In this document: one piece after another, positions 2,615-61,558 of the stretch | Numbering within the stretch: position 1 is the stretch's first letter | Layout: each line of letters starts with the position of its first letter | Source: an uncultured Actinomycetota bacterium | GTDB lineage: Bacteria > Actinomycetota > Actinomycetes > JAFAQI01 | Length of the DNA stretch: 64,000 nucleotides | Direction of reading: 5' to 3' | Assembly: GCA_963770565.1 (NCBI GenBank) | Contig: CAVYQE010000010.1 | Span: 64,001-128,000, forward strand | The notes under the pieces: generated by a model | What the model was told of the DNA's origin: nothing | Database searches by the model: none | The model's input: only the letters and a program-made list of their open reading frames with translations | Made by a program: the position numbers and the translations under genes

Positions 2615-3681
2615 GCACCGTGGTCGCCATCGGCGGTCCCGCGCCGTACGACGTCGTCATCGGCCACGGGCTGGCCGAGCAGCTCCCGGCCTTGGTGGCC
2701 GGGGCCGCCACGGTTGTGACAGTGGCCGATACCAAGGTCGAGGACCGCCTCCCGGCACTGCACGAGGCGCTGCGGGCCGCCGGTCACGAAGTGTCCGGGC
2801 TCACCGTCACCGAGGGCGAGGCGGCCAAGTCGCTCGAGACGGTGGCCGGCCTGTGGGAACGGCTCGGCGAGCTGCGGATCACCCGATCGGACGCGATCGT
2901 CGCGATCGGCGGCGGCGCGACGACCGACTCAGTCGGCTTCGTCGCCGCGACCTGGCTTCGGGGCATTCGCGTGGTTCATCTGCCGACGACGCTGCTCGGC
3001 ATGGTGGACGCGTCGATCGGCGGGAAGACCGGGATCAACACCGCGGCCGGCAAGAACCTGGTCGGTGCGTTTCACCAGCCGGCCGGTGTGCTGGTCGACC
3101 TCGACGTGCTGTCGACCCTGCCCGACCAGCAATGGGTCGACGGGATGGCCGAGGTCGTCAAGGCCGGGTTCATCGCCGACCCGACGATCCTCGACCTGGT
3201 CGAGCTCGATGTCGTGGCCGCCGCGACGCCGCGCGGGGCCCACACCCGTGAGCTGATCGAGCGATCGGTCGCAGTCAAAGCCGAGGTCGTGTCGCGCGAT
3301 CCGCGCGAGTCCGGACCGCGCGAGTTCCTGAACTACGGCCACACCCTCGCCCATGCGATCGAGCAGGTCGAGCACTACCGGATGCCGCACGGCCACGCGG
3401 TCTCGATCGGGCTGGTGTTCGCGGCCGCACTGGGCCGGCGCTCGGGTCGGCTCGACCCGGCGATCGCCGACCGGCACGGCGACCTCCTGAGCCGGCTCGG
3501 GTTACCGACCACTTATCGCCGAGACGCCTTTTCGGCCCTGTCGGACGTGATGCGCATCGACAAGAAGGCGCGCGGCGCGGTGCAACGCTTCGTGATCCTC
3601 GACGGGCTCGGAAAGCCTGCAATCCTTGAAGATCCGGACCCCTCATTACTCGAGGCGGCCTACTCGGAGGTGGCGGCATGA
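2611..3681 (+). CDS. aroB: 3-dehydroquinate synthase
   Basis: [45 protein letters not shown] and HGHAV motifs. Confidence 0.97.
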
Positions 3682-4107: not shown

Positions 4108-5181
4108 ATGACCGCGCATGCACCGCGCCGGGCTGCGGTGGTGGGCGCTCTGCCGGACGGCATCGATGCGTTCCTGGTGAGCCGGGTGGTCAACGTTCAC
4201 TACCTCACCGGATTCACCGGGTCGAACGCCGCGCTGTTGTTGGGCCGGGACGGCTCCGCGGTCTTCGCCACCGACGGGCGGTATCTCACGCAAGCGGCCG
4301 CGGAGGTGCCCGATCTCGAGTGCGTCGACGCCAGGGCAAGTGCGAACACGCTGGTGACCCGGGCGGTCGCGGTCGGGGTCGGCCGGCTCGGGATCGAGGC
4401 ATCCGAAGTGACCGTGAGCCAGTTGGAGGCCTTGCGAGCAGCCGCGGAGGACAAGGTCGAGCTCGTCGCAGTGGGGGAGATCGTCGAGTTGCTCCGCGCG
4501 GTGAAGGACGGCGGCGAGCTCGAGCGCCTCGGCCGGGCGTGCGCCATCACCGATGCCGCGTTTGCCGACGTGCTCCCCGAGTTGCGGCCCGGGGTGACCG
4601 AACGCGAGGTCGCCTGGTGGTTGCACACCTCGATGCGCGACCACGGTGCCGACGGGCTGGCGTTCGACTCGATCGTCGCGTTCGGCCCGCACAGCGCGAT
4701 CCCGCATCACCAACCGACCGAGCGGGTGCTCGAGCCCGGCGACCTCGTGAAGATGGACTTCGGCGCGAGGTACGACGGCTACCACGCCGACATGACCCGC
4801 ACCGTGGTCATGTCGCCGGCGGCGCAGTGGCAGCGCGACCTGCACACCCTTGTGTTCGAGATTCAGCAACGATGCGCCGGGGCCGCCGTGGTCGGAGCGC
4901 TTCCCCGTGATCTCGATGCCGCCGCTCGAGCCGCCATCGAGTCGAGCGGGTACCAGCCCTCGCACGGCCTCGGTCACGGCGTCGGTCTCGAAGTCCACGA
5001 GCGCCCGTTCTTGTCGGTGACGTCCTCCGATCCGGCCCTGGTCGAGAACGCGGCGGTCACGATCGAACCCGGGATCTACCTGCCGGAGCGGGGCGGGGTC
5101 CGGATCGAGGACTCGGTGGTCGTCTCATCGGGTGGCTCGAGATCCCTCACGAACTCGGAGCGTGCGCTCATCGAGTGCTGA
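4108..5181 (+). CDS. pepQ: Xaa-Pro aminopeptidase (M24 family)
   Basis: YLTGFTGS, DGRY, HGLGHGVGLEVHE and TIEPGIY..GGVRIED motifs; ATG at 4108. Confidence 0.9.
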   Translation: MTAHAPRRAAVVGALPDGIDAFLVSRVVNVHYLTGFTGSNAALLLGRDGSAVFATDGRYLTQAAAEVPDLECVDARASANTLVTRAVAVGVGRLGIEASEVTVSQLEALRAAAEDKVELVAVGEIVELLRAVKDGGELERLGRACAITDAAFADVLPELRPGVTEREVAWWLHTSMRDHGADGLAFDSIVAFGPHSAIPHHQPTERVLEPGDLVKMDFGARYDGYHADMTRTVVMSPAAQWQRDLHTLVFEIQQRCAGAAVVGALPRDLDAAARAAIESSGYQPSHGLGHGVGLEVHERPFLSVTSSDPALVENAAVTIEPGIYLPERGGVRIEDSVVVSSGGSRSLTNSERALIEC

Positions 5182-55589: not shown

Positions 55590-57114
<1,525 letters not shown>

Positions 57115-57504
57115 AGCTCTTGGCGTAGGCGATCACAGTCGGCCACTCGGCCGGCTCGACCTGCGTCCAGCTCACGGGTGGAACACTGACTATTCGATCG
57201 TCGCGTCGCGACGTCCCTAGTACTGCCTGCTTGCAGGTAAGGGACGGGTCGTCAAGCGCGGAAATCGGGCACGCTGTTGGGTCCTGAGGGGACGGACCTG
57301 CGGATCTCGCAGGATCGCCCGCTCAGCCCGCAGGCAAACGCCGGCCGGCGCTGACCGGACGGCGTTTCCGCACGGGAGGACCGATCACACGTCGTACTAC
57401 CCCGCACCGGGCAACCGGGACGGCGGCCGGCGACGAGTTCGTGACCGGGACCGCCCGCACCTTGAGAACTGCACAGTGGACGCGAGCATCTTTTTTGTTT
57501 TGTA

Positions 57505-60328
<2,824 letters not shown>

Positions 60329-61054
60329 GGACATAACGCGCTGTCTATAAATTCGGCTAAATGCTGGAAACACCGAGTATCTCGGACTACTCGTTCTTGT
60401 CGGAGCCCCTGTCTAGGGTTCCGCTATGAGCAGTGACAATGTCTCGAGTGCGGTCAATCAGCAGGAAAGGCTGGATCCGTACATCGCAGGGTTCGTTGAT
60501 GGAGAAGGTTCGTTTCACGTTGCTGTCCAACGACATCCGACTACTCGGTTGGGTTGGCAGCTCGTGCCGGAGTTTCACGTCAGTCAGGACGTGTCACGGG
60601 CTGAGGTCCTGTACCTCATCCGGGATCGTCTCGGCTGCGGACGGATCCGGGAGAACCATCGCGGTACACGGGACACCACACTGGTGTACGTCGTGCGCCG
60701 GCGGCATGACCTGGTGACTCGGGTCATCCCGTTCTTCGAAACGGAGCCATTGATCAGCGGTAAGCAGCAGGAGTTTGTCACCTTCGCACGCATCGTTCGC
60801 GCGATGCAGGCGGGGGAGCATCTCGACGCTGCTGGGTTCGCTCGACTTCGGGCATCGGCGCTCGCCATGAATGGCGGGGGGCGATACCGACGAGTGCACC
60901 GTCCAGAATCCTCAGAGACTCCACGCCGAACACCGATTGCAGCTCTGATCGGTGAAGATATAGTCCGACCTGCATGGCGACATGCAGAGCCAGGCAGAAA
61001 TGACCTGGCCCCAACGCTGAGCAATGATGATTTGGCGTTGTGGTAACACATGTG
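60329..61054 (+). mobile_element. Group I self-splicing intron in 23S rRNA at position L2604 (E. coli numbering), 726 nt
   Basis: Interrupts GAGACAGT^TCGGTCCCTATC. P1: exon AGACAGU pairs with GCUGUCU (60340-60346), with a U-G pair at the splice site. P3 ttcggc/gccgaa; P aaatgctggaaa; Q aatcagcagg; R tcagagactcca; S aagatatagtcc; P8 and P9 hairpins; terminal G at 61054. Confidence 0.95.
60426..61046 (+). CDS. Single-motif LAGLIDADG homing endonuclease (intron-encoded)
   Basis: YIAGFVDGEGSF, GWQLVPEFHVSQ, LGCGRI and VIPFF...PL.S.K...F..F motifs; 206 aa, uninterrupted. Confidence 0.93.
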   Translation: MSSDNVSSAVNQQERLDPYIAGFVDGEGSFHVAVQRHPTTRLGWQLVPEFHVSQDVSRAEVLYLIRDRLGCGRIRENHRGTRDTTLVYVVRRRHDLVTRVIPFFETEPLISGKQQEFVTFARIVRAMQAGEHLDAAGFARLRASALAMNGGGRYRRVHRPESSETPRRTPIAALIGEDIVRPAWRHAEPGRNDLAPTLSNDDLALW

Positions 61055-61349
<295 letters not shown>

Positions 61350-61437
61350 ACAACAATCTTTGCTTCGCGTCCACTGTGCGGTTCCCGAGATGCGGTCGGC
61401 TCCTCGTTTGCGGGAGCAGGACCCACATCTCCATAGA

Positions 61438-61558
61438 GTTTCGGCGGCACAATGGCGAAGGGGAAACGCCCGGTCCCATTCCGAACCCGGAAGCTAAGCC
61501 CTTCAGCGCCGATGGTACTGCCCTGGTGACGGGGTGGGAGAGTAGGACGCCGCCGGAC
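61438..61558 (+). rRNA. rrf: 5S rRNA
   Basis: cccggtcccattccgaacccggaagctaagcc...gccgatggtactg...gggagagtaggacgccgccgg. Confidence 0.97.

Follow-up and report, generated by a model that had tools for sequence, protein, structure and literature searches.

The 64,000-nucleotide (nt) stretch analyzed here (the window), part of contig C10 of the assembly of an uncultured bacterium, carries at positions 60329–61054 an insert in its 23S rRNA gene that we read as a mobile group I intron, lying between U2604 and U2605 (Escherichia coli numbering) and housing the gene of a single-domain LAGLIDADG homing endonuclease; we put the probability of this reading at about 0.92. It is carried by the exact insertion site, a ribozyme fold with covarying helices, an endonuclease domain under purifying selection, the occurrence of decayed copies and copies without an open reading frame (ORF), and a site-specific clade that extends over many phyla. 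The initial annotation, made from the letters of the window, had already recognized a 726-nt group I intron at this place, but it overlooked the 206-amino-acid LAGLIDADG ORF (60426–61046), which makes the intron a mobile element. The parts of the locus are as follows.

55590–57108, 16S rRNA gene; 57504 onward, 23S rRNA gene; 61440–61558, 5S rRNA gene: the rRNA operon of the window (Rfam scan)
57504–60328, plus strand: 5′ exon of the 23S rRNA gene, ending at E. coli U2604 (start taken from Rfam LSU_rRNA_bacteria)
60329–61054, plus strand: group I intron of 726 nt (exact exon join in intron-less relatives; RF00028 match)
60426–61046, plus strand: ORF of 206 amino acids, single-domain LAGLIDADG homing endonuclease (Pfam PF00961; GFVDGEG motif)
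61055–61355 (end approximate), plus strand: 3′ exon of the 23S rRNA gene, beginning with U2605 and aligning to 2607–2906 of the E. coli copy used

The three rRNA genes of the operon are intact in the Rfam scan. The conserved 23S string GAGACAGTTCGGTCCCTATC is interrupted after GAGACAGT (60321–60328) and resumes at 61055 with TCGGTCCCTATC (61055–61066), and the boundaries are fixed to the base because the flanking bases differ on the two sides (T at 60328 versus G at 61054, and G at 60329 versus T at 61055), so that the edges of the insert cannot slide. A search of 40 relatives and the window's own genome gave 22 genomes with a 23S match, 14 of which (G008, G009, G014, G021, G025–G029, G031, G034 and G036–G038; query 729|1456) join window position 60328 directly to 61055 with no insert; the intron-less target site reads CGCGAGACAGTTCGGTCCCTAT. 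Besides the window's own genome, an insert occupies the identical place in two genomes of the same genus (G001 and G004) and one of the same family (G010), and the 23S matches of two others (G003 and G040) do not cover the site. In the E. coli rrl copy used (2906 nt), GAGACAGT begins at 2599 and the last exon base is 2606; judged from landmark motifs whose standard positions we take as given, this copy presumably runs two positions ahead of the standard numbering, and the insertion site is therefore U2604|U2605, in what we take to be helix 93 of the peptidyl-transferase centre. This mapping agrees with the '2604' site name used for bacteria of the candidate phyla radiation (CPR) by Tsurumaki et al. 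(2024, J Bacteriol; PMC11270868), and the E. coli alignment bears out the assignment to L2604 made in the initial annotation.

The fold was assessed in an alignment of 60 distinct site-2604 introns (those of the window, G001, G004 and G010, and of 56 further loci), with the 5′ and 3′ parts aligned, in which 70 pairs on window coordinates, belonging to P1, P3, P4, P5, P5a, P6, P6a, P7, P8, P9, P9.1 and P9.2, were counted against controls whose 3′ partners were displaced by 1–3 columns. Standard pairs fill 92.4% of the cells over the 70 pairs versus 34–40% in the shifted controls, a comparison biased in favour of the structure, which was derived from the window sequence; independently of that bias, compensatory change (on both sides, in at least two sequences) is seen in 43 of the 70 pairs versus 12–26 in the controls. 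In P3, for example, U:A is exchanged for C:G, and the GCGA loop of P9, itself invariant, is closed by five different helices; P4 and P6 show no variation and are thus uninformative on covariation. The elements of the ribozyme, all on the plus strand, are listed below, with pairing percentages referring to the 60 homologues.

60322–60328: 5′ strand of P1 (exon AGACAGU), pairing with 60340–60346; 95.6% standard pairs
60339–60346: internal guide sequence (3′ strand of P1, CGCUGUCU); C60339 pairs with intron G60329
60352–60357: 5′ strand of P3, pairing with 60925–60930; 97.5% standard, three of six pairs compensatory
60362–60367: 5′ strand of P4 (UGCUGG with UCAGCA), pairing with 60458–60463; 99.4% standard, near-invariant
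60372–60375: 5′ strand of P5, pairing with 60451–60454; 99.1% standard, two of four pairs covary
60381–60448: P5 extension, with P5a formed by 60381–60387 and 60441–60448; seven of seven pairs covary
60390–60394 with 60426–60430: tentative P5b, which would hold the ATG
60401–60408 with 60416–60423: tentative P5c, in a variable region
60464–60475: 5′ strands of P6 (60464–60465 with 60910–60911; invariant) and P6a (60471–60475 with 60902–60906; four of five pairs covary)
60476–60899: P6a loop, housing the body of the endonuclease ORF; missing from the ORF-less copy of G004
60915–60920: 5′ strand of P7 (G60915 and 60917–60920, with A60916 bulged), pairing with 60962–60966; 98% standard
60925–60930: 3′ strand of P3 (covariation alignment)
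60931–60954: P8 hairpin (caccgat/atcggtg, 60931–60937 with 60948–60954); seven of seven pairs covary
60955–60966: J8/7 (AAGAUAU) and 3′ strand of P7 (AGUCC), fitting the RF00028 consensus AAGAUAUAGUC
60970–60987: P9 hairpin with the GCGA tetraloop at 60977–60980; 98.6% standard, five of seven pairs covary
60989–61009: P9.1 hairpin; six of six pairs covary, 83.5% standard
61012–61040: P9.2 hairpin, in a variable region; seven of seven pairs covary, 70.2% standard
61054: terminal guanosine (omega G), present in all 60 homologues

At the 5′ splice site, U60328 and G60340 form a wobble that is U-G in 58 of the 60 homologues; the base preceding the intron is U, and its final base G, in all 60. The adjoining pair 60329:60339 is G:C in 31, A:U in 20 and U:A in 5 of them, and in P7, presumed to be the guanosine-binding helix, 33 homologues have U:A and 25 have C:G at 60920:60962. 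P2 is absent, only 5 nt separating P1 from P3, and so are P7.1 and P7.2, the 5′ strand of P7 being followed by P3′ after about 4 nt. Minimum-free-energy folding of ORF-less homologues found P1, P6a, P8, P9 and P9.1, but not the long-range P3 and P7 pairs, as expected for a pseudoknot. The helices named in the initial annotation (P1, P3, P4, P7, P8, P9 with its GCGA loop, and P9.1), the terminal G and the absence of P2 and P7.1/P7.2 were thus all recovered at the places it had given them, and most of the helices covary. The intron matches Rfam RF00028 over the whole model (60319–60987; 36.8 bits, E = 1.1e-7), which is no chance match.

This evidence bears directly on a different account of the insert, namely that it is an intervening sequence which host RNases excise without rejoining the ends, so that the 23S rRNA stays in pieces. 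Fragmenting intervening sequences are known in bacterial 23S genes, RNase III-cleaved ones being mentioned at other sites in PMC11270868, and ligation is not visible in the contigs of the RNA runs, which are short, the spliced junction being moreover identical in all bacteria. The insert, however, interrupts an invariant string of the catalytic centre, and its group I core is conserved and covarying in its entirety, which is not the picture of an RNase III-type intervening sequence; the U-G at the 5′ splice site and the terminal G were in this weighing counted as invariant (60 of 60 copies; the U-G pair itself as given above), and a break at this point of the catalytic centre, within helix 93, would presumably be poorly tolerated. 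We therefore regard fragmentation as very improbable.

The encoded protein matches Pfam PF00961 (LAGLIDADG_1) at residues 20–123 with 68.8 bits, against a cut-off of 23.1 (E = 8.4e-19), and with one domain only. LAGLIDADG enzymes in the PDB match residues 10–151, the halves of I-SmaMI and I-OnuI doing so at E = 1e-31, and further matches are single-domain enzymes of rRNA introns and I-CeuI. Its LAGLIDADG motif reads YIAGFVDGEGSF and keeps the acidic residue that, at the end of the LAGLIDADG helix, forms the metal-binding site. GFVDGEG, or GYVDGEG in one copy, is found in 57 of the 60 copies; two are ORF-less and one lacks the motif, and among the 57, five frames are shortened to 64–137 codons. 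At each end the ORF shares sequence with the ribozyme: it begins with an ATG within the P5 extension, codons 1–17 traverse P5a′, P5′, P4′, P6 and P6a, the body fills the P6a loop (the exact part that is missing from the ORF-less G004 copy, query 877–1300), and the final ~48 codons run through P6a′, P7, P3′, P8, P9, P9.1 and P9.2 to a TAA stop at 61044–61046, 8 nt upstream of the 3′ splice site. Most relatives' ORFs stop earlier, in J8/7 or near it, and about 8 of the 57 reach the conserved GUAAC. In comparisons of the window copy with those of G001 and G010, the ratio of nonsynonymous to synonymous substitution rates (dN/dS) is 0.14–0.20 over codons 19–155, and the core of the ORF is thus under purifying selection; in the tail that overlaps the ribozyme the ratio rises to 0.32–0.76 with a low dS, a pattern that would be expected if the RNA and not the protein constrains the tail. 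Five of the eight inner positions on each side of the insertion point are palindromic, a weak signal, and the protein probably acts as a homodimer.

The L2604 intron also occurs in ORF-less forms, which measure 329 nt in G004 (locus L010, 670–998) and 276 nt in locus L095 (4373–4648); a third, in a genome of the host's class (G065:C23:500–1024), is estimated from match coordinates at ~345 nt. The G004 copy retains the ATG and the first 17 codons, because these form helices of the ribozyme.

How widely the element occurs was seen in a scan for its endonuclease over one genome per species (185,579 species), which gave 279 confirmed relatives; the figures that follow refer to the best 80 of these 279. 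A strict junction test (insert exactly at ACAGT|...G|TCGGTC) placed the insert at the 2604 junction in 56 of the 80 loci, 12 having no intron at 2604 but the related endonuclease in a different 23S intron, five showing the 3′ junction alone, one (L055) having a variant 3′ exon, and six showing no junction. The 56 are labelled Actinomycetota (26, mostly metagenome-assembled genomes (MAGs) of Acidimicrobiia), Pseudomonadota (9), Omnitrophota (7), Planctomycetota (3), Armatimonadota-type (3), Deltaproteobacteria (2), 'bacterium' (2), Dormibacteria (1), Dadabacteria (1) and Parcubacteria (1), together with one Nanoarchaeia-labelled MAG. In a quick maximum-likelihood tree of 115 endonuclease copies, whose sites were assigned from BLAST ends within 2 nt, a single branch (SH-aLRT 95) sets the 64 copies at site 2604 apart from those at 1917, 1923, 1931 and 1951; inside this group, 30 Actinomycetota rows and one Dormibacteria row make up a supported set (99), and the other phyla are intermixed. 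Presence among near relatives is patchy, 4 of the 18 with a readable site not adjoining another insert carrying the intron. In an even draw of 401 genomes from the host's class, which left out G004 and G010 and in which two candidates were scored per genome, the intron is rare, 4 of the 288 genomes with a match (G000, the window's own, with G001, G047 and G065) showing intron sequence among the matches listed. The relatives and class tallies include the unpublished genomes G040; G055, G057, G278, G317 and G384, on which no specific claim rests.

These counts divide the initial annotation's statement that such an intron would be unusual and possibly unreported: rarity in the class stands (4 of 288), whereas the site is already in print for CPR bacteria (PMC11270868) and occurs in at least 56 of the 80 best loci. 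Its premise that L2604 introns are not common in actinobacteria is likewise qualified, 26 of the 56 loci being Actinomycetota-labelled, although the class sample yields only those four genomes. At about even odds, the L2604 intron and its endonuclease constitute one site-specific mobile lineage, largely unnoticed, that spans at least ten bacterial phyla outside CPR together with DPANN-labelled MAGs; in such a lineage the Actinomycetota branch may be old and shared between two classes, and the intron looks to be kept in the organism's seemingly only rRNA operon.

The same data bear on whether the endonuclease still drives homing. An unlikely alternative holds that the ribozyme is active while the protein has become a maturase or is decaying, the intron now being inherited vertically in this lineage. 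Decay is indeed common, as seen in the ORF-less copies of G004, in the same genus, and of L095 and in the 5 shortened frames among 57; the clustering of the Actinomycetota copies leaves room for long vertical descent, and the one rRNA operon assembled on native DNA offers no target within the genome. The window ORF, on the other hand, is intact and keeps the acidic motif residue, and a dN/dS of 0.14–0.20 denotes selection at the protein level, which is compatible with either an endonuclease or a maturase. We continue to favour the intron as a mobile element: a homing cycle agrees with a clade confined to one site, with a presence that is patchy among relatives yet extends over many phyla, and with copies that have decayed or are ORF-less.

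Several loci carry additional inserts. At three of the five loci with the 3′ junction alone (L031, 2130–3624; L034, 138–1255; L071, 2120–3604), two inserts adjoin in one 23S gene, an L2593 insert of 734, 360 and 723 nt, respectively, following ...GAACGT and being succeeded by an 11-nt exon and then by the L2604 intron; this 11-nt micro-exon, CG(C/T)GAGACAGT, provides the entire P1 exon strand of the L2604 intron. Two genomes of the same family as the host (G005:C12:4336–5066 and G019:C221:142–869) have no L2604 intron but an unrelated insert of ~720–730 nt 11 nt upstream, at an L2593-like position. G010 has an extra ~880-nt insert in the 1943–1951 region of its 23S gene (L008, 613–1500; G010:C3:181612–182500), the 3′ junction of which fits L1951, the eight exon bases that read TGTCGGGT in the window not being found beside it. 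Locus L095, labelled Acidimicrobiaceae, shows three Rfam group I matches in one 23S gene (2573–2880, 3380–3609 and 4363–4594, with 61.2, 43.7 and 56.8 bits), and multi-intron 23S genes therefore occur outside CPR as well. Related endonucleases also occur in archaea-labelled MAGs (L086, 2802–3631; L092; L098; with Nanoarchaeia, Nitrososphaerota and Woesearchaeota labels); the L086 intron sits at the 2604 junction, its archaeal identity resting on the MAG label.

The window 23S rRNA is 87.7–88.1% identical to Acidimicrobiia-labelled (Actinomycetota) 23S rRNA versus 78.7–80.9% to proteobacterial 23S rRNA over 650 nt. Relative to E. coli it has 79 additional nt at 57779–57857 (after ~272), 31 at 58780–58810 (after ~1179) and 95 at 59047–59141 (after ~1414), the last of which we take to be the actinobacterial signature in domain III. 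From the identity and this ~95-nt insertion, the host is therefore inferred to belong to Actinomycetota, in accordance with the actinobacterial origin proposed initially.

A second 23S–5S pair, with no 16S gene beside it, lies on the minus strand of contig C1 of the same genome (G000, C1:68893–72818; L006, 4894–8819), with genes for a C5 DNA methylase and a HEPN protein upstream of it, on the 5′ side. Its 23S sequence is 69–79% identical to that of the window, lacks the ~95-nt domain III insertion and contains introns of 299 nt at L1917 (RF00028, 58.5 bits) and of 697 nt at L1951, the latter with a 165-amino-acid LAGLIDADG ORF. It was found in none of the 40 relatives, and neither of its 4.5–5-kb flanks has orthologues in relatives. 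Contig C1 as a whole is native, carrying the sole rpoB and recA of the assembly, with rpoB 92–97% identical to that of same-genus genomes. Its first ~396 kb, in which the second 23S gene lies, in contrast have 60–65% GC versus ~69% elsewhere and a tetranucleotide distance of ~300–450 versus 134 ± 65 for the rest, and by composition they are likely a chimeric contig or a very large foreign segment. The C1 gene was considered as an intron-less target or back-up in the same cell and rejected as probably foreign on grounds of identity, the missing insertion, its absence from relatives and composition. The window gene is thus the only 23S gene assembled on DNA of native composition, and since it carries the intron, efficient splicing would be a near necessity.

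The suspect segment of C1 might raise the thought that the window insert, too, is an assembly artefact, another organism's intron chimerically joined into the 23S gene. Contigs at 97% likeness were taken from DNA run X1 and from the metatranscriptome runs X4, X5 and X8, all being short Logan contigs. The X1 contigs cover 60341–60715 and 60756–61084 without mismatches; under a rule of 31 letters no contig bridges either exon–intron junction, the best, 60756–61084, reaching 30 letters into the 3′ exon. X1 also contains a junction that lacks the intron, and its CGTGAG in place of the window's CGCGAG assigns it to another organism. What speaks for the joined sequence is that the same intron with the same junctions recurs in independent assemblies (G001 and G004 of the same genus, G010 of the same family, and genomes of 56 other species), that the window endonuclease is closest to that of a same-genus genome (91% over 187 aligned columns) and so tracks host relatedness, and that C10 is native in composition and shows synteny to each of the 12 relatives tested. 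A chimeric origin is accordingly the least probable of the alternatives, and scarcely credible. Depth in the exon bins is 10^3–10^6, summed over all organisms, and 0–74 in the intron bins, and one RNA-run contig lies inside the ORF (60501–60739; depth 4.6, run X4).

Some observations weigh against a functional mobile intron in the window. The Infernal search proposed as a check in the initial annotation returned a match to the full model, but one whose 36.8 bits fall below the gathering cut-off of 50, because the 436-nt ORF stretch is counted as an insertion; the ORF-less copies of G004 (74.1 bits) and L095 (56.8 bits) exceed the cut-off. P5b and P5c are poorly paired in the alignment and have no covariation support, and P10 is weak in the window copy, where the family's usual (G)ACCG before the guide sequence is AACG. 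The ORF extends ~25–45 codons past the stop of most relatives, so that its last part may go untranslated or evolve neutrally. As the assembly comprises 11 contigs, it may have collapsed or overlooked additional rRNA operons, whether these carry the intron or not. Finally, the spliced joint 60328>61055 is absent among the 15 joints listed for the four runs, whose contigs are short; that joint would be identical in all bacteria.

By analogy to other group I introns, the element would act as follows. Transcribed as part of the pre-rRNA, the intron would fold into P1 and P3–P9.2, without P2 and P7.1/P7.2. A free guanosine bound at P7 would then attack the 3′ side of U2604, held in the U-G wobble of P1, after which the terminal G (61054) would occupy the guanosine site and the freed 3′ OH of U2604 would join U2605. 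Ligation would restore GAGACAGUUCGGUCC in helix 93, and the spliced product, shorter by 726 nt, would read ...CGCGAGACAGUUCGGUCC. The 206-amino-acid protein, probably as a homodimer, is predicted to cut intron-less 23S DNA around 2604, whereupon repair would copy the intron in (homing); it may also assist splicing.

To our knowledge, rRNA introns are still regarded as rare in bacteria other than CPR. The window case and its homologues at no fewer than 56 loci show that the ribosome's catalytic centre is interrupted by a homing-endonuclease intron in uncultured bacteria of many phyla, soil Actinomycetota included. Annotation pipelines can truncate such 23S genes: at the Rfam gathering threshold, cmscan stopped the LSU match at 60404, inside the intron, and reported neither a separate 3′ exon nor the intron itself, so that automatic annotation would misplace the end of the window 23S gene. 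Surveys by polymerase chain reaction or read mapping across site 2604 will likewise miss or mis-size intron-bearing genes. The encoded protein represents an uncharacterized LAGLIDADG specificity for a universally conserved sequence, and we know of no characterized enzyme for the ~22-bp L2604 target in the peptidyl-transferase centre. If the organism has no 23S gene besides that of the window, all its ribosomes depend on accurate splicing; and the co-occurrence of L2593 and L2604 elements, if true, would make their 11-nt spacer the shortest micro-exon to separate two group I introns in rRNA, a setting in which cooperative or ordered splicing can be tested.

The element is worth comparing with the introns at other positions of 23S rRNA. 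The Chlamydomonas L2593 intron encodes I-CreI, and Coxiella burnetii has a 23S intron at L1917. The C. burnetii L1951 intron (table of PMC1995217) is, like the window intron, a 23S group I intron of a non-CPR host with a LAGLIDADG protein, but the Coxiella introns occupy other sites and belong to another host phylum. The L2593 introns, cyanobacterial (Haugen 2007; PMC1995217) and archaeal of type IA3 (Nawrocki 2018; PMC6125680), lie 11 nt upstream in the same helix region and also encode single-domain LAGLIDADG proteins; however, they carry P7.1/P7.2 and a short P2 (PMC1995217), both lacking in the window intron, and the coexistence of an L2593 insert with the L2604 intron in L031, L034 and L071 means that the two are distinct elements. 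The part of PMC6125680 drawn on here gives archaeal rRNA group I introns at 1923, 1931, 2500 and 2593, with none at 2604.

In architecture, the L1917 and L1931 introns of Synechococcus sp. C9 are similar to the window intron, lacking P2, having a complex P5 region and encoding a single-motif LAGLIDADG ORF that runs from a peripheral loop through P7, P3 and P8 into P9 (PMC1995217). Introns at L1917/L1931 have been called IC1-like without P2 (PMC1995217), and those at L1923/L1931 IB4 (PMC6125680); for the window intron itself, the initial annotation proposed a IB-like subgroup from the absence of P2 and P7.1/P7.2, the candidates being IB4 and IC1-like without P2. The L1917 intron on contig C1 is 76–83% identical to two core segments of the window intron. 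The Synechococcus introns differ in their site and in that L1917/L1931 endonucleases form a clade separate from that of the window, whose ORF moreover begins before P6, within the P5 extension, and continues to a point 8 nt short of the 3′ splice site.

The closest counterparts are the CPR introns described in PMC11270868, which reports group I introns encoding LAGLIDADG_1 proteins at 23S positions 1917, 1931, 1952, 2593, 2604 and 2657, several of its sites (given as site codes) being previously unreported in bacteria, and in which the characterized enzyme, I-ShaI, belongs to another site, 23IS7. The CPR introns at 2604 share with the window intron the site, the Pfam family of single-domain endonucleases and the coexistence of ORF-containing and ORF-less forms. 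The literature searched on L2604 variants and on rRNA group I introns of actinobacteria or Acidimicrobiia contained nothing relevant beyond this paper, whose figures S1 and S2 and non-CPR RefSeq comparison may tabulate non-CPR cases. The endonucleases of the CPR-labelled loci L051 (Parcubacteria) and L055 (Peregrinibacteria) are 47–48% identical to that of the window and belong to the same site-2604 clade. The window host, with a 23S rRNA nearest to Actinomycetota-labelled sequences, is not a CPR bacterium, whereas PMC11270868 describes the site for CPR alone. Neither the site nor the type of element is new, but the window holds the first such case found for Actinomycetota in the literature searched.

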